64,000 nucleotides of DNA from Squalus acanthias (taxonomy: Eukaryota): positions 87,360,001 through 87,424,000 of the forward strand of contig CM059432.1 in assembly GCA_030390025.1 (NCBI GenBank), given 5' to 3'. A program made the position numbers and the translations under genes. Below the pieces are notes generated by a model. The model had not been told where the DNA came from, did not search any database, and saw nothing but the letters and a program-made list of their open reading frames with translations. Below, piece after piece: positions 1 to 12,080 of this stretch. How positions within the stretch are numbered: the first letter of the stretch is position 1; each line of letters starts with the position of its first letter.

Positions 1-792
1 AAGACCTTCACGCATCTGCAGCAGAGCTCGTCTACGGTCAGCCGCTGCGCGTACCCGGCGAGTTCCTGCCCACCGCCACGACACCCTGGTCAGCCGACCA
101 GCAACGCCACGACTTCGCCTCACCGGCGCTGCAGTTCGCCCCGGTGCCCATTGGCCGACACGGCGAATCCACCTCACACATCCCACTAAGCCTGCACCAG
201 GCACGGTTTGTTTTCGTCCGGCACGACGCCCACCGCGGACCCCTTCAACCCCCGTACGACGGGCCCTACAAGGTGCTACAGGCTGGGGACAAATTTTTCA
301 CCCTGCAGGTGGGCGACAGGACCGAAAAAGTGTCGGTTGACCGACTCAAGCCAGCACACTCGGAGCCCGGTGAGCAGGTCCCTGTAGCTCGTCCACCTCC
401 ACGCGGCCGACCTGCCCTCAAGCCGGTTCACCCGGCTGCTCCACGCCCGGCCGTTCCACGTCCACCGGCGTCCTACAAGAGCCGCTCCGGCTGGCCCATC
501 AGACCGCCGCACCGTCTCGTCCACACCTCCTAAGCGGATTCTGGGGGGAGCTGTGTGGCGGATCGCCACCTAAACGGGCATTATCCACTTTTCCGTCCGT
601 GGACAAATATCGAGCACCTTGCCTTTAAGGCACTTTACCTTTAAGGCAGGAGTGGGTGGGGCCTCAGGGTTTTTCCAGAGAATTCTGGGAGCAGTCTGTT
701 CAGCCTTTTTCGACCATGCAGTTGTACTAAAAAGTCTCTCGTTTTCCACACATGGATTCAGTCTTAATTCGTGTTTTGCGGCAGCCTCAACA
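1..792 (+). mobile_element. 3' end of a Gypsy LTR retrotransposon (integrase C-terminus, polypurine tract, 3' LTR about 554-792)
   Basis: Open frame <1..533 (DLHASAAELVYGQPLRVPGEF...LQPPYDGPYKV...VSVDRLKPA, GPY/F module); GGGGGGAG tract at 543-550; TG at 554, CA at 792, after which the other element's integrase resumes. Confidence 0.88.
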
Positions 793-1276
793 ATACCATT
801 TCTTGTACTTAACGCCCTTTTCCCCCGGTAACTGAATCAAATAAACCACGGGGTTCAATCTATAATCGTATGCGGTCCCCACCACCTGGGCTCAAAGGCA
901 TGCTTCTTTTTCCCATAATTTGGAATCATTACGGTGTCCCCCACCTGATACTTGTCAAAGTACCTTTTAATTTGTCTTTTTGACTTTCCCAATTTCGTGG
1001 CCACAAATTGATTCATTTGATCGGTGTGATCTACCACTTGTTCCAGCCACTTGGAACTACATGGTTCCATTGTCAAGGGGCTCATCCCCGTTGGTGTTAG
1101 CTGGCCTGGCGTTCTCATGAGTCTGCCCGTCATGGCCTGATATGGGGAGACTCCTGTTGTTTTATGAGGTGTGGACCTCATTGCCATTAAGCACATTGGT
1201 AGCATGTTAGCCCATTGAGTGGGGTGGTCTGCACACAATTTTTTTAACATTAACTTGAGGGTCCTGTTCCCCCTTT

Positions 1277-2946
1277 TGTAGAATTCGCAATATTATCGCG
1301 ATTTTATATAATAAGGAGGAGACACATAGTTTCGTACAAACAGCTTTATTTCAGCAGAATGCTGTCAGGTTGTCAAAGTGGACACAAGCAGCCTGTAAAA
1401 TGGCCGCCACGCCGCGTGGCAGAACGTTCTAGACTTTTCGATAAGCAGACAAGATGGCGTTCCAATAAACATTTGTGCGAGATCGGACAAGACTCAGCAC
1501 ATTTAAGATAATTCACAAGACATAATGGGTTTGCATTTTACACATAAATACTGGAATCGGTCTCCCAGGTGCGAATAAGGGCTATTGTACCAAGCGATCA
1601 AGAACCCATCCAAAGACATTAATATGCAAAATCCCCACGACTCTACGATGAGAGAGCCGTTTGCGGGTAGTTACAGAAACATCTGGAAGCCCCAAAACCC
1701 CTCTAGGGAGAATACTGACCGGTTACACAATGGGAGAAGTATTAACGGGTACTCAGGCAGTTACAAGTATCACCGAAACCCATTAAACGGAGATCACCCT
1801 ATACAAGAAGTTTGAGCGCCAAAACCCTGACAAAAGAAAGACATTAAGATTGGGCGGGAAAAGAGGAATTACAGCACTATAACTGTAAGGTACAACCGTC
1901 CATCTGTCTCTTGACTCCTTGCCGCTTACCTCGTGTCTCTGCCTCTTGCAGCTCTTGCTGTTTGACTTGCTGGAAGACTATTGAACTTTCTGATCCGCCA
2001 GGATCAACCTCGTGGCTTGCCGCGAAGATCCGTGTAGAACTGGGCTGTGAGGCCTTAACACGGGCACACCATCCCGAAAGGTCGGTAAATGGTGTTGGAA
2101 CCGAAGGCCCGAGATGAGATGAGATGAGATGAGATGAGAAGAGAAGAAGACGACAATACGTATCGCCACGGTCAGTAAGCCCCGACCGCGCCTGTAGGTC
2201 GAATAAACACTTTCCTTGCCCAGGAAGACTATTCTTTGAGTTTTACAAACTGGCATGAGGGCACAGGAAGACCATTCTTCGAGTTTTATCGCATCAGGGC
2301 GAGGGCACAGGAAGACTATTTTTCGAGTCGTGTCGGAACTCCGAGGACAACACAGATCTTCATGACAGCAGACGGTCCAGCCTGCTAGCCGGAGCAGAAA
2401 CGAGTAAACAAGTGGGGTACAGAGACCCCTGATCAACACGTGGGTGGTCAGGTGCTGCGGTAAAAACATCCGAGCAGAGTTTCGGAATTCTCCGAGTTAT
2501 CACGAGTGGTGAGCATGAGTCTCGATCCTACAAATCTAGTTTAGGACAGGTATTGATAGGGGAGGGTTTAAGTTTTAAGGATAATTGTAATGTGTGTCCC
2601 CTTTTACGATGTGTCGTGCGCTCCTCGTTTCCCTAAAATTAGCTACATAACTGCGTGTAAGATTGTACTGTCATTAATCTGTGCTTATGACATGTATTTC
2701 GTAATCTTGAATAATATGCAATAAAGATTTTCCATTTCGCACTATTCAACCGGGTCTACCTGAGTTTTCTCTGCATTATTGCTCTCGCACCTAAGTCCAG
2801 TGTCAGAACCGTAAGGGCGAGTGGGTCGAACCACTCACAGGTGTCTAGTGTTACCAGGCTGGCTGGAGACCAGAACAGGCAACAAGGCCTAACCTCGCAC
2901 TAGCACCCAGGCTACGCACAGAGCCTCAGGCGTGTCACCCCTTACA
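1277..2946. mobile_element. 1670-bp solo-LTR-like insertion in the integrase
   Basis: TG..CA ends; 4-bp TSD CTTT (1273-1276, 2947-2950); removal restores QSSGGVE-R-GNRTLK; internal (GAGAT)n and AATAAA. Confidence 0.85.
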
Positions 2947-3101
2947 CTTTCGACCCCTCCAGACGACTGGAGGTGGTGAGCAATATGTAGTTTGTGTTTT
3001 ATCCCCAACATTTCCTGCAGGTGGGTAAAAATCTTACCGGTAAAGTGCGAACCTTGAACACTGTCCACTTGTACTGGTACTCCCCACCTACAAAACACAT
3101 G

Positions 3102-3845
3102 GGCCCAGAAATTGATCTCGCTCTGTTCCCGCGGGGGTAAGCCTTCCCCGCGATGTCTCACCTCGCTTATGCTTTTTCTGATCCAGCTCACACGAAATTG
3201 ATGTTCCAGACATCAGCTGTGCTGGGCTTGCGTATCCCAGCGGCGTAGTTAATTCGTGCGAGCTGTGGGATCACGTGACTCAGTTAGAGCCAATGGCAGC
3301 ACACCATCTTCCATTCATAAGTCTCACAGCATGGCTGTGAGACTTATGAATCTTACACCCCCCCAAAATAACAGCTAAACCTCAATTAAATTTAAAAAAA
3401 ACCCCATCACATTAATAAAATAAGTATAGTTAATTAAATTAACCATTTTAAATAAAAAATTAAATTTTTGAAAAAATTTAAAATCTTTTAAAAAGTTATA
3501 AAAATAAACTTACCTGTCTTTAAAGTCTATAAAAAAGATATACCTGTAAAAAAAAATTCAAAAAAATACTTAATTCACTACTTACCTTCTTAAAAGCGGG
3601 TCTTACTCCTCCTTTTTACATTTCCAAAATCTTCCCTACTTACCTGCGCGTCCAAAGCATGAAGTGCACAGCGTGCGCGCAGCCTGTAGTGCGCACGCGA
3701 TGCAGCCAGGCCCCGCCCCCTTTTCGGAAGAGCAATTGCCGGTTTTCAGCGCATGCGCAGGGCATGCAGAAAACCGGCAATTGGAGTGGGAATACGCGAG
3801 AGTATGCAGTGCGTACTCTCGCGTCCCGGGATCAATTTTCGGCCC
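3102..3845. mobile_element. Non-autonomous Harbinger-type MITE (744 bp) in the integrase
   Basis: 16-bp imperfect TIR GGCCCAGAAATTGATC / GGGCCGAAAATTGATC; 3-bp TSD ATG; removal restores AKTLLNH-VFCRWGVP; AT-rich core. Confidence 0.85.
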
Positions 3846-5410
3846 ATGATTTAATAGTGTTTTGGCTGCCGTGATTGCGGTGTTGGAGCGGCAGGGGAAT
3901 GCTTCGATCCATTTAGTGAACTGATCCACTACCACTAGGGCATGCTGAAAATTGCCTTGCGCCTGTGGAAGTGGCCCAATGAAGTCTATCTGGAGGTGAG
4001 TCCATGGCCCTTGAGGTGGGGGCGCGCTTTGAAGCAAGGCTCGGTTAGTGCACGTGGGAGGATTGTGCTGCAGGCACGGTAGGCATCGTGCCACATATAG
4101 GTTGATTGTTTCGCTCATGGAAGGCCACCAAGCTGTGGATGCTACCTTATAGAAGGTTACCAGGGCCGAATAGTGCCCTGCCGTGGGGTGGGAGTGAAAG
4201 AGGGAGAGCAGTTCCTGACCCACCTCTGGTGGAACACACACCACCGGGCAGGCGTATGGCTTTCTTTTGAACATCAGCAACTGCTCCGCTGAGTCAGGGG
4301 CAGTGGCTAGTATGGTATTGGGGGCCCAGGCTGTCGGTTGAGGAAGGGGTCTGCCTTCCTCGTGCCAGGTGCTTACAACGGCATATGGCCAGTATCGCTG
4401 CTGCAGGGATTTTAAATCTAGGTGATCTGTTGGTGAGCCCTTGCTAACAGCATTGCAGGGCTCAACAACTATATCCTCTATCTCCCCATCAATCGCAGCG
4501 TCCTTGGCTGCTCTGTCTGCTCTGGAATTTCCCTCACTATGTGGACCCCCTTTTCGATGGGCTGCTGTCTTTCCTATGAAGCAGGGCTGGGATCGCTGTT
4601 TAAGGTATGACCAGAGCAGGCGTAACCAGGGCCCATGGACCAGGGCCTTACCGTCTATTGTACGGTAGTCATTTTTGTGGTATAGGGGCAAGGAGAGCAT
4701 GGTGTTTATAGCATAGGCACTATCAGACCAAATAGTCACGGGTCTATCTGAGGTTTATTTCACGGCGGTAAGAATTGCGGCGATTTCCGCATATTGTAAG
4801 GACTGTCGGTTGCATTGTCACTGGATGGTTCTCTCTGGCAATACCACAGCAACCCGGTGTGGGGGGATCCCTTGATGTGATATGAGGACCCATCGATGTA
4901 GACATCTGGGTCTCCCTGTATGGGCTCTTTCTGCACAGGATGGGTCTCAAAGTTAATCAGGGGTAGCGGACATTCATGCGGCTCCCTCTCATAAACCAGA
5001 AATTGTGGCAGCAATGTGGTGGGTTTGGAAATGATACTAATGTCTCTTTCCATAAATTCCAATGTCCATTTGCTGAGGCGCGGCGAGGAAACTAGCGAAT
5101 CTCCAGGTTTCATCAGTAGGTTCAAAGGCGTGTGAGCGCTGTGAAGGATGGTAGCTTGTAGCCCGGAGATAAAGGTAAAATGATGTACCGCCCAGAAGAC
5201 AGCCAGCAGGTGGCGCTCGCACGCGGTATACGTCTTTTCTGCCCCCTGCAGGAGTTGAGACGCATATGCAATGGGTTGTCGTCGATTAGCTCATGTTTGG
5301 CACAGAACTGCGGCGAGGCTTTGTTCTCTGGCCCCGACCTCCAAATGGAAGGGCTGCGTGGGATCCGGAGGAATCAGACATGTGGCCTGTGTCACTGCAG
5401 TTTTTAATTT

Positions 5411-5514
5411 GAGAGGTCGCACAACACCAGGTTATAGTCCAACAGTTTTATTTGAAATCACAAGCTTTCGGAGCTATCGATTTGCTCCTTCCTCAGGTGA
5501 AGTAAATTAGATCA
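5411..5514 (-). mobile_element. Short Penelope-type terminal fragment with hammerhead motif, inserted in pol
   Basis: Flanked by TTTTTAATTT direct repeats; removal restores MAKLK-TAVTQATCL; nearly identical to 55437-55540. Confidence 0.8.
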
Positions 5515-6957
5515 TTTTTAATTTTTAATTTTTAATTTGGCCATGGACTGGGTGTGAGCATCAGTCCATGCCGGGCGTATGTCATCACCCTGCAGTTTTA
5601 TCAAATCATACAGGGGCTTTGCGCACTCTGCAAAGCCTGGGATAAAGTTCCTTTGGTACCCCACCAAACCCAAGAATGATCGTAGGGCTGTTTTGGAAGT
5701 GAGTAATGGTAGTCGCTGTATTATCTCCACCTTGTGGGAGTTGGGGGATGGTCCCTCTGGAGAAATGGACACTCCCAGAAAGGTGACCCGTTCTTTTACC
5801 AACTGAGCCTTACGGGGATTCACCTTTAGCCCCACCTGAGCCAACAATATCAACAGTTTGTGCAAAAGGGACAGATGCTCCTCCATGCTATCGGTTGCCA
5901 GCAGAAGATCGTCTACGTACTGTAGCAAGCAGGTAGGGCGGGAAAAGTCTTTTAAAACTGCAGCCATTCTTTAGTGGAAGATCGTGGGGGCATTGTGGAA
6001 CCCCTGAGGCAGGCATGTCCAGGTGTAGCTCTGGTCCTCAAATGTGAACGTGAATTTGTACTGGTCCTCTCTTTTAACAGGGATACTCCAGAATCCATTG
6101 GCGATGTCGATGGTTGAGAAGTACTTGGAACCAGCAGGAATTTGAAATAATATGGTGGGAGCTTCTCTTACTACCGGTGAGCAGGCTGGCGTTACAGAAT
6201 TTAACTTTCTGTAATCAATAGTCAGTCACCAGCTGCTATCAGGCTTTTTAACCGGCCATGTGGGTGAATTGGTTGTGAAAGTGCCTGTCCTAACAACACC
6301 CTTCTCGACTAGAGATTTTATGGTGTCTCGGATGTAAGGGTGACTCTCCCTTGGGATGGGGTATTATTTGGTGAATGAGTGCGGGGGTCCCTCAATAGAC
6401 TCTTCGCCTGCCATTTTTCCACAATCGTGCTTGCAAGTGGCAAACACCGCGAGGTGTTCCTGAATTAGTTTTGCCACAGCTTCATTTTCGCTCCCCGGAT
6501 GGTCATACTCGGATGGCTTTTTAATAGCAAAAACAGAGTGAGCATCTGAAATTTCTATCACTTTTGCATTATTTCTCAATCCCATTCAAACACAGTCCCG
6601 ATTGTAATCTATTACCGCGCCATACTGATCCAACACACCAGTCCCTAAAATTCCCCTTCCGTCGGGGGTGGTCATCAGCATCGGCGCTGGGACCTTGCAG
6701 GTGAGGCCTCCCAACTGAAGTTCAGAGGTCTTCCCCGTATACGCGGTGGTTGTATCACCATTAAACCCTTTAAGGGCCATACAACCCTTGCCCGCTGCTG
6801 CATGGCATTCAGGGTTTGGGATGATGGTAACGGCTGAGCCAGTGCCTATAAGCATAATCTGCTGCCGGCCCCCTTTTAAGACAACAAGGACTACTGGTCT
6901 CCCGCTACCATCACATAGGAACCCCACTTCCGACCAATCTTTGGGGGCCAAACGCTG

Positions 6958-8670
6958 TCATAGGGTGGATCCTTGGAGGGGTCCCTCCAATGGGTGTGCA
7001 TTGACAATAGGATTTTGCATTCCCAATGGGTGTGCATTGGCGATTGCGTGCACCGGTAAATGATTTTGCATCCCCCCCGTGACAATTTGGGCTTTCATGA
7101 GGGTTATCAACTGGTCCAATCGTTCATCCGTCCCAGAGGACTTGGATTCGTCCTTTTTTAGAAGGGTAACTAACTGAGCCAATTGTTGTTCCATCCCAAA
7201 GGGTTTGGGTTCATCCCTCGGGAGGTATCTATGCGTAGCATCGTGGTCCCGTGCCTGTCTGGGTCTCCTGCAGTGTTTTGCTAGGTGACCTTCCTTCTTA
7301 CAATTAAAGCACTGTCCCCTAAAGGGGTAGTACCTAGATCCCTCCACTGCTGACACTGGTTTCTTTGCGGTGGGTGGTGACTGCACCTTTAACTGGTCTT
7401 TTACCATCTCCCAGGCTCTTTGAACGTTAGTCTCTGTATCTATCCACTGATCGGTGGGCCTCACGGCTATGCCCAGGGTGGTTTTAACTAAAGAGTGGAG
7501 TTGGGTCAGGAACATCGTTTTGAATTGTTCCCGATTCTTTCCTGCTGCAGCATGTGCGGGTGCCTGGTTCTGGGGACGTTCATAGATATCGTACAGGCGA
7601 TTACTGAAGGCTCTAGGGGTCTCATCTGGGCGCTGTTTGGTCTGACTAAGCATAGCCACTAAGTTTAAGTTTTGGATTCCTAAATGGTTTAGGATCTCGG
7701 TCACGACTACACTGGTCACTGTGCCACGCTGGAGGATCGCGTCTGGCAGATTATTCTTTAAAGAAGTGGAACAGGCCAAGAGGAGGACTCGTGTTAAGCC
7801 TCCCTCTTCTAACTCGAGGTGACCCCTCCTGAAATCTGCCCACCTCCTATTAACTACCAGTGAGTCATCCCCATCATTAATGGGCCCCAACTCGTGGCTA
7901 CATGCCGTGGCATCAGTACCAGATATGGACCGTGAGTCGGTATGGTTACTAGTGATGTGACCATGCACATTACGCCGTAAAGAGGTGGTCACTACTGCTA
8001 CGGTTGGCCCTTGTGTCTCCAAGGTATTCAATCCTTCACTGCCCTCCTGGGGATTATACTGACTGCCTTCCTCTTCCCAATCTGTCTCCCCCTCGTCCCT
8101 TTCTGTTGTCTCTGTTATGGCTCCCCGTGTTACTGCGGATACTAGAGCTTGTTGCTGCCTTAATTTACTTTTTAGCCGCACTATTTCTAGGTGGCACTGG
8201 GAGTGGTCTGCCTCCCTATGTGGCTTCTTAATTGCTTCCCTTAATGCACCCCTAATGTCGTCTACTTCCGGCCGGAGCCCCAGGTTTTCCAATTTATATT
8301 TTTTGAGCTCTAATCTTGTTTCATTTGCTGCCGCGACAGCTGCTCCTGCATTTAAATTTGAGAGGCTTTGTTGCTGTAACAACAAAGCTGCCTGCTCGGC
8401 TCCTCTTTCTAGTTGCCTGATACTGTGGCCTAATCGATCGATTTCTTGTCTCAAATGTTGTATTTCTCCCTCCTTTAACTGCCTAACAAGCTGGATGCCT
8501 TCTTCTTTCTGTTCTTTCATACTTTGAATTTCCTTTTCTTTTAGTTGAATCTCTTTGACTTTTAGTTCTTTTAAATCTTGTATCTCTCCCTTTAAATCTC
8601 GAATCTCTTTTGCATCCTGCCTCATTAATTCCTCATCTCTCCGAGCACAGTAATGTGCCCCGAACGCCAA
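6958..8670 (-). CDS. gag: Gag-like ORF (570 aa open; true N-terminus degraded, probably near 8885)
   Basis: N-terminal heptad coiled coil; capsid-like QRPDETPRAFSNRL; zinc knuckle CFNCKKEGHLAKHC. Confidence 0.85.
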   Translation of the reverse strand: MAFGAHYCARRDEELMRQDAKEIRDLKGEIQDLKELKVKEIQLKEKEIQSMKEQKEEGIQLVRQLKEGEIQHLRQEIDRLGHSIRQLERGAEQAALLLQQQSLSNLNAGAAVAAANETRLELKKYKLENLGLRPEVDDIRGALREAIKKPHREADHSQCHLEIVRLKSKLRQQQALVSAVTRGAITETTERDEGETDWEEEGSQYNPQEGSEGLNTLETQGPTVAVVTTSLRRNVHGHITSNHTDSRSISGTDATACSHELGPINDGDDSLVVNRRWADFRRGHLELEEGGLTRVLLLACSTSLKNNLPDAILQRGTVTSVVVTEILNHLGIQNLNLVAMLSQTKQRPDETPRAFSNRLYDIYERPQNQAPAHAAAGKNREQFKTMFLTQLHSLVKTTLGIAVRPTDQWIDTETNVQRAWEMVKDQLKVQSPPTAKKPVSAVEGSRYYPFRGQCFNCKKEGHLAKHCRRPRQARDHDATHRYLPRDEPKPFGMEQQLAQLVTLLKKDESKSSGTDERLDQLITLMKAQIVTGGMQNHLPVHAIANAHPLGMQNPIVNAHPLEGPLQGSTL

Positions 8671-8989
8671 GAGACCGTTTGCCTGTTTTGGGCCTTAGCT
8701 TTCCCTCATCTACCCTCTCCTGGATAAATGACACGAGCTCCCAAAAGGACGCATGTTGGCCCTTACAGATGCATCATGCCCATAACTCTTGTAAGTCCCT
8801 TATGGACACCTTTTCGTATATTTTTTCATGGTAGGCTACAACTACGTCTTTCACTGGCATTTTGTATGCCCCTGATCCCTTCATCCTGTGTCTTTTGAAT
8901 TTACTTTTAAACTTCGCACCACAGGTTAGAATCGCAACTCCCGAAATTTTCCAATTGTTTAAAAGAATGATCTAAAGCTGTCTCGCCAG

Positions 8990-9007
8990 ATCCCGGACGA
9001 GCCCCCA
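8990..9007 (-). promoter_or_regulatory. Primer-binding site complementary to tRNA-Pro
   Basis: Minus strand reads TGGGGGCTCGTCCGGGAT, the canonical 18-nt PBS-Pro. Confidence 0.95.
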
Positions 9008-9011
9008 GTTT

Positions 9012-9677
9012 TGTAAGCTTTTTATTTCGACTGGCATTAAATTGACAGCAAGACCAGTTCTTTTGAAACAATTTGGAATAAGTTTATTAAACACACACAC
9101 TCATGCACATCAAAACAATAGCCTACTGGTATTTATGGACTCTACTCGATTACAACACGTAAGGTAATGGGTTAGATTTACAGAGACTGGTACTTCCCTG
9201 AGTCAAGCAATGCACGCGACCTTTTTCCTTGCTTCTTGGTCTGGTCTGTAGAGGGAGGGCTTCTTGTTTTTCCACGTGGTTGTCCAGAGAGAGAGAGAGA
9301 GCCTTTGGGTTCCTTGTTTTATATCTTTTTAAGTCCATTGTCTCTACTCTAAATTGCTAAGACCCCATGATTGGGTCTCAGATTCATGGCAGTTCTTGAT
9401 TGGCTTTCCTTTGAACATGTGTCTGTCTGCAGTGGCTGGTGCCATTTCTTGCTTAAGTTAATTGTTTGTTGACACCTTTTAGTGGCTCTTGAGTTTCGAT
9501 GGTGAGTTTCGATGGTGTCTCTGTGGGGGGTTATCCTGTTATACAGGTTTCCTTTGTTAAGTTTCGCGCCGTTGCCTTACCCAGGGGAGATCCATACACA
9601 TCAAATTTATCTTTATTACATACATCTTACATTAATAGTCTCGAGTCACATACAAAACATATATTTTTATTCTTACA
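9012..9677 (-). repeat. 5' LTR (666 bp) of the retrovirus-like element
   Basis: 6-bp terminal inverted repeat TGTAAG/CTTACA; minus-strand TATAAAA near 9317-9323 and AATAAA at 9083-9088; PBS 4 nt downstream; LINE sequence begins at 9678. Confidence 0.85.
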
Positions 9678-10420
9678 GCTGTTCACTGATGACTGCACAG
9701 TGTTCAGCTCCATTCACAAATCCTCTGATAATAAAGTAGCCCAGCAGAAATGGACAACATTCAGGCTTGGACTGACAAGTGGCATATAACATTTGCATAA
9801 GTGCCAGGCAATGAAAAAAGCAAAATTCCCTGATCTTCAATGACACTACCGTCACTGAATCCCCTATCATCAACATTTTGGCGGTTATGGTTTAACTGGA
9901 TGGTGCTCTGTGACAAATGACTAACCACCTGACCCCTCAAAGCCCTTTGACCATCTACATGGCTCATGTCAGGAGTGTGATGGAATACTCACTACTCTCC
10001 TGGATGGGTGCAGCTGCAGTGACATTTCAGAATCTCAACACCATCCAAGACAGAGCAGTCATTTGATTGTCACCCTTTGCACTGGACTCAGTATCTATCC
10101 TCCTCCATCACAGTGCACTGTGGCTGCAGTATGTATTAGCTACAATCTACAGGATACACTGCAGCAACTCATTATGCTAACTTTTATGGTACTTACCTCC
10201 TCGTGATCTCTAGCACCGTGAAGGACAAGGGCCACATGTTGCGGGAACACCATCACCTCCAAGTTCCCTTCCAAGGTACACACCATGCTGACATGAACAT
10301 GTATCTCTGTTTCTTCATCATCACTGGATCTGTATCCTGGCTTTTCCTAACACCATTGTGGGAACACCATCACTACAAGGACTGCAGCATTTCATTAAAA
10401 GGCCCATCACAACCTTCTTT
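9678..10420 (+). mobile_element. Degraded 3' fragment of CR1-group LINE (same family as 20035-23140)
   Basis: LFTDDCTVFSSIH motif; similar to 22300-23100. Confidence 0.7.
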
Positions 10421-10649
10421 AGTTTCCAGCAATAATCACATCTAGGGAACAAATGAAAAAAAAGACTCCTGTATTGACATATTGGGATAAATGTCTCTTG
10501 CAGCAGCAACTGGTTGTGTTCTGTATCCTCTTCATGCCCCTGCTGCCCTTTAGAGCCTTCTTTCTCTGAGCATTCAATGACAAGGCCTTTTTGTAAGTCA
10601 AAATTATGCAACATGCAATACAGCACTATTATCTGAAGTACAATTAAAA

Positions 10650-11588
10650 AATTTGTGGACGACACCAAATTGGGAGATAAAGTTAATACAAAGGAAGAAT
10701 GCGACAAAATACAGGAAGACTTTAATAAACTTGCAGAATGGGTGTGTAATTGGCAAATGAATTTCAATATAGATAAGTGCAAGGCGGTGCATTTTGGTAG
10801 GAAGAATAAGGAGGCCACATACTGCTTGAATAATAAGAGTGTAAATGGGGTAGAGGAGCAAAGGGATCTAGGGGTACAGATACACAAATTACTAAAACTA
10901 GCGACGCAGGTAAATAAGGCCATTAAACAAAACAAACTAACCACTGGGGTTTCATTTCTGGAGGGATAGAATCGAAAAGCAGAGAAGTTATGGCAAACTT
11001 GTACAGAATCTTGGTAAAATCACACTTGGAGTACTGTGCACAGTTCTGGTCTCTATTATAAAAAGGATATAGAGGCATTGGAGAAGGTACAAAAAGGATT
11101 CACAAGCATGATACCAGAACTGAAAGGATATACTTATCAGGAAAGACTGAACAGGCTGGGGCTCTTTTCTCTAGAAAAGAGAAGGCTGAGGGGTAACCTG
11201 ATAGAGGTCTTTAAGGTAATGAAAGGGTTTGATAGGTTAGATGCATAGAAAATGTTTCCACTTGTGGGGCTGTCCAAAACTAGAGGACATAAATATAAGA
11301 TAGTTATGAACAAATCCAGTAGGGAATTCAGGGGAAACTTCTTTACCCAAAGAGTGGTAGGAATGTGGATCGTGCTGCCACAAGGAATAGTTGAGTCAAA
11401 TATCATAGATGCATTTAAGGGGAAGCTAGATAAACACATGAGAGAGAAAGGAATATAAGGATATGCTGATAGGGTTAGGTGACGAGGGGTGGGAGGAGGT
11501 TTGTGTGGAGCATAAATAATGGCATAGACAAGTTGGGGCAAATGGCCTGTTTCAGTGCTGTAGACTCTATATAACTCTATGTAACTAT
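10650..11588 (+). mobile_element. CR1 LINE 3' fragment
   Basis: DDTKLG..WQMNFNIDKCK..RLGLFSLEKRRLRG..FFTQRVV; ACTCTAT-type tail repeat. Confidence 0.88.
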
Positions 11589-11599
11589 CCTTGAGACCT

Positions 11600-12080
11600 T
11601 AGCCCGACTATATTGCAAAGCACCCTCAGATTGATCCAAGCACCTGAAGCATGCTGTCAAAATTTCAGTAGTGGTTTATCATGACTCTGGTGGCAGAATG
11701 GATCTAGTTGCAGCAGTGCTTAGTAAGTGTCCTGAGAAAGTGCATAATATCACCATTCTTGATTCTTCAGGATCCATCCAGACACCTGCCTTTATGCTTG
11801 AAAAAGTCCAGGCACAGTGAATTGTCCTAAAATGAAGGCACCTTGACAGCTGCCAGGAAAGTGACTATTTACTTGTATGATGCAGTGATCCTGGTCATAA
11901 ATGAGCTGAACATTGATTGAGTGGAATCCTTTCCTGTTGATGTATATGATGGGACTGATGAAAGGAGCACATATGGTCATGTGGGTACACTCTATGACTC
12001 CTTGTACTTTGGAGAATCATATCACTCAGTAAAATTGCAGTGTTATGTCCTGCTTGTGCCTGTTGTCTACAAGCATTATA
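11600..12080 (-). pseudogene. Old PIF/Harbinger transposase relic
   Basis: YINRKGFHSINVQL..IIQVNSHFPGSCQGAFIL resembles the HARBI1-family core. Confidence 0.7.

Follow-up and report, generated by a model that had tools for sequence, protein, structure and literature searches.

The window analysed here, a stretch of 64,000 nucleotides from the shark Squalus acanthias (GCA_030390025.1, contig CM059432.1, positions 87,360,001 to 87,424,000), contains at positions 793 to 9677, on the minus strand, part of a dead simple provirus of roughly 9 kb, arranged LTR-gag-pro-pol-env-LTR (LTR, long terminal repeat), of which the 5' two thirds fall inside the window. It is best explained, with a probability of about 0.82, as a member of the CmiERV-I lineage of endogenous retroviruses (ERVs), likely class III and likely primed on tRNA-Pro. 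Its Gag-Pol was probably made by reading through a UGA codon ahead of a predicted forked stem-loop, and the virus would have entered cells through an envelope (Env) with a predicted paramyxovirus F fold. The element belongs to a multi-copy shark retrovirus family, its reverse transcriptase (RT) is placed inside the canonical retroviruses and outside the lokiretroviruses (loki), and both the lineage and its occurrence in cartilaginous hosts were already known from a described elephant-shark member. An earlier note on the same DNA had proposed a lokiretrovirus-like element or a new basal lineage that could extend the range of loki to cartilaginous fishes.

Phylogenetic placement and closest relatives

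The RT tree comprises 72 rows chosen from 300 available and 264 columns. References for foamy viruses, snakehead retrovirus (SnRV), walleye dermal sarcoma virus (WDSV) and delta-type viruses came from viral contigs and were labelled through the RT rows in the loki supplement; nine loki proteins were labelled by the same RT motifs, whereas for Gypsy and gamma rows the labels were drawn from Pfam content, names and where they fell in the tree. The element lies within the canonical retroviruses (100/99), with loki on a separate side (100/99). It forms a clade with Xenopus, coelacanth and frog proteins (95/94), and this clade is grouped with SnRV and with turtle and frog class III-like rows (94/87). 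The SnRV grouping is also present in the best tree of a 33-row set (86/65), where approximately unbiased (AU) tests rejected both a clade of the element and loki (p 0.0101) and one of the element and mammalian foamy viruses (p 0.0103). As the earlier note held, this is a true retrovirus, neither Gypsy, gamma or epsilon nor foamy; the RT falls outside Gypsy and the element carries two RNase H domains. The lineage is likely class III, SnRV-related and part of clade Huo, an SnRV-related class III group identified in all major vertebrate lineages (Xu et al. 2018).

Against the Xenopus, coelacanth and frog elements the window RT reaches 53-65% identity (50% for one additional coelacanth fragment); its identity is 43% with SnRV, 36-40% with loki and 36-39% with foamy viruses. 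A protein search gave Xenopus tropicalis at 59% over the query and coelacanth and frogs at 47-51%, and a search of the viral contigs with the Xenopus Pol gave no match. The description of the RT as foamy-like holds only against PDB, a database in which the best matches are foamy Pol and closer kin are absent; such kin exist outside it. The proviral Pol proteins of Xenopus tropicalis, coelacanth and frogs (P0001-P0006), compared as proteins, are much closer in RT; they are annotated just as NYNRIN-like or Gypsy-integrase-like. In one of the frog proteins (P0004, annotated NYNRIN-like), residues 1185-1331 lead from the integrase through a signal peptide to an Ig-like domain, the apparent start of a related env.

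In the RNase H tree (39 rows) the single-frame piece of the element groups with its own family and Xenopus. A clade supported at 98/97 holds the element, foamy viruses, loki and turtle-type rows, with SnRV outside, and within it a pair formed by loki and foamy viruses (95/91) excludes the element. The second RNase H is therefore retroviral, as had been proposed, and adjoins the foamy/loki type. In the integrase tree (44 rows, no CGIN1) the shark and Xenopus clade (100/99) stands at an open fork, and the coelacanth and frog relatives are nearer to loki.

Elephant-shark ERVs described in 2015 as CmiERV lineage I were reported to cluster with SnRV (Han 2015, PMC4422223), and with that publication neither a new basal lineage nor a range extension to cartilaginous fishes is sustained. 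The RT of this lineage is identical to that of the window at 88 of 135 residues, about 65% (hand count on a sequence translated by eye and not included in the tree), and the Pol similarity is at the level of the sister families within the shark genome (57-70%). Judged by eye, both have a simple genome, the same tether motifs, an in-frame TGA before the protease and a coiled-coil Gag that contains a single CCHC knuckle. They differ in the primer-binding site (PBS), which in CmiERV-I is not that of tRNA-Pro and looks like that of tRNA-His, and in the envelope, which in CmiERV-I is gamma-type, with the immunosuppressive domain and CX6CC visible, and in the window family is F-like with an Ig-like N-terminus.

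SnRV (genome L049) likewise has a coiled-coil Gag, one CCHC knuckle, gag, stop and pro in one frame, and a tether plus RNase H, so the coiled coil, the knuckle and the tether plus RNase H, read earlier as signs of loki, are not pointers to that group. The CA-NC portion of the window Gag aligns with SnRV Gag at 25% over 133 amino acids (E 2e-8). SnRV differs in its stop (UAG, not UGA), in a longer Env with extra open reading frames, and in an RNase H and integrase that group apart from the window clade. In another element, XtERV-S, a stop likewise separates gag from pro-pol within a single frame (PMC8278194).

The gag-pol junction

The in-frame stop between gag and the protease is conserved across copies rather than a mark of decay. 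Scanning 41 sources for the junction gave 30 true matches, with 3 spurious ones dropped. The gag stop is TGA in 29 of them and TAA in one, and the triplet that follows is CGG in 17, CAG in 6, TGG in 4, AGG in 2 and TAG in 1; CAG and TGG are the products that CpG decay would be expected to leave.

The predicted readthrough signal occupies positions 6867 to 6960 (minus strand) and comprises the UGA, a spacer of 8 nt and a 7-bp stem (6949-6943 with 6873-6867), closing about 85 nt downstream and predicted to enclose two hairpins. Across 31 aligned rows, pairing in the closing helix reaches 92%, and 9 rows carry a double change from C-G to U-A; in slid controls at most 59% was paired for the whole structure. 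Synonymous shuffles of seven representatives placed five at 3/100 or less, one at 8/100 and one at 48/100. By a stricter measure, with at least 4 of the 7 pairs predicted, 22 of 30 copies passed; among background pol windows the figure was 28 of 200. Folding predicts a forked stem-loop, and Gag-Pol was likely made by reading through the UGA with the help of this conserved RNA stem.

By eye, the CmiERV-I junction is alike: 8 nt after its TGA comes a stem whose arms are perfectly complementary and include a further double change. The WDSV junction has no such stem (1.0 of 7 pairs), and the other two epsilon loci yielded no junction. Among known signals, the closest are the type II signals of Venezuelan equine encephalitis virus and Colorado tick fever virus, both described with UGA-CGG and a stem-loop from +12 (PMC13517186). 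The shark signal shares with them the UGA-CGG, the 8-nt spacer and an extended or forked stem-loop from +12, but is known only as a prediction and stands at a retroviral gag-pro junction. Murine leukaemia virus uses UAG and an H-type pseudoknot, also from +12, and the same 2026 review describes the readthrough cis-elements of epsilon and unclassified aquatic retroviruses as still unclear (PMC13517186). A literature search found no account of such a readthrough signal in an ERV or retrovirus.

The envelope

The env gene is located outside the window, in the segment directly to its left (L011, G000:C8:87350001-87360000), as two frames at L011 6065-5349 and 5362-4298 followed by a broken tail. 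It comprises a signal peptide, an N-terminal portion, a basic furin site, a heptad region, a cysteine-rich domain and a membrane anchor. For the N-terminal portion Atlas suggested an Ig domain (0.94), to be taken as no more than a lead; this Ig-like domain may have served in receptor binding.

For a profile of 44 env pieces, the six highest-ranking PDB rows were all paramyxovirus F0 (best E 0.0087), and Pfam Fusion_gly matched 4 of the 44 pieces below the cut-off (best E 0.003). The structural model was made from a sister family, for a core of 506 amino acids with a mean pLDDT of 59; a full-length model from 14 rows had a mean pLDDT of 34. Foldseek matched the sister-family model to the F proteins of human parainfluenza virus 3 (hPIV3), henipavirus and respiratory syncytial virus, the best being hPIV3 F (E 1.4e-9). 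VIA-align gave Z 10.9 for Newcastle disease virus F (rmsd 18.4, 297 aligned) and Z 8.1 for foamy Env (rmsd 5.2, 271 aligned), and BFVD gave the Env of WEHV-1 and of feline foamy virus. By extension from the sister family, a paramyxovirus F fold is predicted for the Env of the window family. Searches of Pfam, and of PDB by single sequence, with the window env fragments gave nothing, and word-index searches with the window env fragment and with the 14-row env alignment gave no relative.

F-like envelopes are known for loki (PMC7947760) and for foamy viruses (PMC11468914). A literature search, with key papers outside its coverage, found no statement of an F-like Env for SnRV-type viruses. In the sister-family env frames (L014, L015, L020 and L026) the F-like core is common and the N-terminal domains are very different, as for a swappable receptor-binding module; the L026 family is only about 20% identical.

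Alternative explanations and significance

That the element is a lokiretrovirus, and so carries loki into cartilaginous fishes, is very improbable. Loki and the element share the dual RNase H (tether plus RNase H), an F-like Env and a related RNase H type, within the 98/97 clade, and the coiled-coil N-terminus of Gag recalls the loki smc region. The F-related Env, a mark by which loki are recognised, is predicted here too but is not diagnostic, for foamy Env and WEHV-1 Env match the same model. Against these likenesses the RT is outside loki in the tree and by the AU test, and the loki RT motif W/F.RCPFGY.NSPAEFN is replaced by WTCLPQGFHNAPTIF. The loki consensus entries consulted are labelled as fused gag-pol polyproteins, whereas the window element has a stop between gag and pro; its RNase H is outside the loki and foamy pair and its integrase stands at an open fork rather than with loki. 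None of the 6 chondrichthyan genomes covered by Wang and Han (2021, PMC7947760) had loki.

A placement at the base of the foamy clade, as a basal shark and frog foamy-like ERV of the kind named CmiFLERV and XtrFLERV (Aiewsakun and Katzourakis 2017), is improbable as well. Foamy Pol gives the best PDB matches, the F-like Env and the RNase H type are common to foamy viruses, the closest named protein is from Xenopus tropicalis, and a cluster of shark and Xenopus was reported in PMC5512871. XtrFLERV (CX312570) and CmiFLERV were known here by accession only, and the label may or may not cover the clade of the element. Grouping with mammalian foamy viruses was, however, rejected by the AU test, and the element has a CCHC knuckle, gag and pol in one frame, a tRNA-Pro PBS and no room for accessory genes. 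Spumaretrovirinae lack the CCHC, express pol from its own frame and carry accessory genes after env. Their layout is ruled out by the CCHC, the single gag-pol frame and an env that reaches the polypurine tract. Odin retrotransposons, defined as dual-RNase H elements lacking env (PMC9040795), are set aside by the presence of env.

It is also conceivable, though unlikely, that the shark, Xenopus, coelacanth and frog clade is a deep canonical branch of its own, loosely near SnRV and deserving a name apart from clade Huo. The SnRV link is short of strong support in both RT trees, the RNase H and integrase trees set the clade apart from SnRV, there are no accessory genes, and the Env is just 20% identical to SnRV Env. 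Yet a close member was already placed with SnRV (Han 2015, PMC4422223), the Gag layout, the in-frame stop and the furin region of Env resemble those of SnRV, and the RNase H and integrase trees are short and partly open.

The reading as a CmiERV-I-lineage provirus related to SnRV, with UGA readthrough and an F-type Env, has several observations against it. The support for the SnRV link (94/87 and 86/65) is below the strong-support mark, neither the RNase H nor the integrase tree joins the element to SnRV, and fish and amphibian foamy-like ERV, ERV-L and Odin sequences were absent from the trees. The Env aligns with SnRV Env weakly, around the furin site (hhalign probability 25%, E 8e-4), and SnRV Env searched in the shark genome gave no match. 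At the junction, 11 of the 41 sources had no match, and the pattern itself demanded C/T/A, A/G and G after the stop, the stop being left free. The stem statistic was picked after the folds had been seen, and double changes occur in only 2 of the 7 closing pairs, with few independent events. One sister family (L014, L021) fails the stem measure (0 of 2), and SnRV passes it in a 102-nt window and fails in a 115-nt window.

A broader proposal is tentative and somewhat doubtful. The canonical branch of shark, frog and coelacanth may have kept an ancient toolkit, with a foamy/loki-type RNase H, an F-type Env and, in some members, a swap to a gamma-type envelope, together with readthrough by an alphavirus/coltivirus-type UGA-CGG forked stem. 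The F-type Env would then be ancestral to retroviruses and not a peculiarity of loki.

The placement of the element removes a false extension of the loki range. Traits by which loki have been recognised (dual RNase H, coiled-coil Gag and F-like Env) occur in a canonical lineage too, which bears on the published argument that loki and canonical retroviruses gained their envelopes independently (PMC9040795). Two members of one lineage with unrelated envelope types are a clear case of envelope swap, and the readthrough candidate is concrete and matches known signals in its +12 geometry. The element is beyond routine in three respects: an F-type Env where the described member has a gamma-type one, an RNase H adjacent to foamy viruses and loki, and a candidate type II readthrough signal.

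Copies in the genome and host

Counts of copies by LTR, RT and env are lower bounds. In the 3.7-Gb genome the LTR gave 519 candidates, of which 40 were scored, all of them at least 90% identical (90-100%) over most of the length. The RT search gave 47 of 114 scored matches with at least 86% identity (hand count, self included), the remaining ones being mostly sister families at 57-78%, and the env fragment gave 123 matches from 114 scored candidates. Three near copies, one megabase apart (G000:C19:17584604, 18124997 and 18313287), have gag fused directly to pol through an internal deletion, as observed in L082.

The cartilaginous-fish host was confirmed by the presence of shark VNAR-type antibody genes in the genome. 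A ten-residue VNAR motif was identified at 4 genomic places, with none for a control. At one of these places the initial 29 residues match 30 PDB sequences, all named as shark VNARs. VNAR-type V segments are located at G000:C29:16711755, 17108127 and 18020441 (L098-L100); one of these was translated and has a frameshift about 30 residues in.

Organization of the provirus

The Pol motifs of the earlier note were all found at its positions, on the minus strand, and Pfam bears out the domain order of protease, RT, tether, second RNase H and integrase: zf-CCHC, aspartic protease, RVT_1 (1.7e-32), RT_RNaseH as tether (6.5e-21), a second RNase_H (1.3e-9), Integrase_H2C2, rve and MLVIN_C. The features of a retrovirus identified are the series LTR-PBS-gag-pro-pol-env-LTR, the tether plus RNase H and a target-site duplication.

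The 5' LTR (9012-9677, minus strand) is 666 nt long, begins with TG and ends with CA, and matches both the 3' LTR in L011 and genomic copies. The PBS is likewise as proposed, its 18 nt at 8990-9007 (minus strand) being the complement of the 3' end of the host tRNA-Pro gene. The PBS-matching pattern has 517 occurrences genome-wide, and at one of three loci retrieved for inspection ARAGORN predicted tRNA-Pro genes. Long tandem arrays with a period of about 1623 nt and a tRNA-Pro 3' end in each unit are located at G000:C26:40518143-40570092 and 40847383-40892835.

The gag gene (6958-8884, minus strand) is broken at its 5' end and continues as an open frame of 578 amino acids (8694-6961) that ends in the TGA at 6960-6958. 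The coiled-coil Gag with a single CCHC knuckle noticed earlier is present, the coil at the N-terminus (about 8640-8320) being followed by the capsid region and the knuckle (7314-7267). Protease and RT (5529-6957, minus strand) share the frame of gag and contain four in-frame stops, and the protease active-site motif is degenerate in this copy. The tether, a degenerate Ty3-type RNase H, is at 5051-5365 and the second RNase H, with a frameshift close to its N-terminus, at 4494-4900, both on the minus strand. The integrase (793-4235, minus strand) is in three pieces, 4235-3845, 3101-2947 and 1278-793.

Three insertions within 793-9677 were delimited against four sibling copies: a short one in the RT connection region (5412-5528), not present in siblings L030, L031 and L032; one with inverted ends within the integrase (3102-3844); and one of 1.7 kb, also within the integrase (1279-2946), recognised by sibling comparison. 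The fourth is a complete Gypsy element that interrupts the end of the integrase at 793. It is unrelated to the provirus and full-length, about 4.35 kb (G000:C8:87356442-87360792). Its LTRs are 96% alike, it contains two long pol frames, and its insertion is marked by a 4-bp duplication; its 3' end, with integrase, polypurine tract and LTR (554-792), covers window positions 1-792 on the plus strand and the remainder extends back through L011 6442-10000.

Position 793 is thus not the end of the provirus, as had been supposed, since env and the 3' LTR continue leftward (G000:C8:87353013-87356441). To the left of the Gypsy element are, in order, the last integrase codons, a short insertion, env in broken frames, the polypurine tract and the 3' LTR (L011 3974-3013), which contains two insertions. 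The env gene stops just short of the polypurine tract and so leaves no space for accessory genes. A 4-bp target-site duplication brackets the whole provirus, one copy at 9678-9681 and its partner, flanking the 3' LTR, at L011 3009-3012.

The two LTRs differ at 12 of 644 aligned columns (Kimura two-parameter distance 0.019, 23 gap columns excluded), which corresponds to about 19 Myr by the rate assumed in PMC10699275 and about 43 Myr by that assumed in Han 2015 (PMC4422223). After integration the copy decayed and gained at least 7 further insertions.

An Rfam search over 793-9700 gave nothing notable, the single match being a chance snoRNA (E 0.74). Just beyond the 5' LTR (window 10321-11600) are fragments of a CR1-like LINE reverse transcriptase. 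At L012 147-2059 and 3861-4851, adjoining LINE fragments, are remnants of Harbinger-like DNA transposons with a transposase-like frame and a Myb/SANT-like frame.

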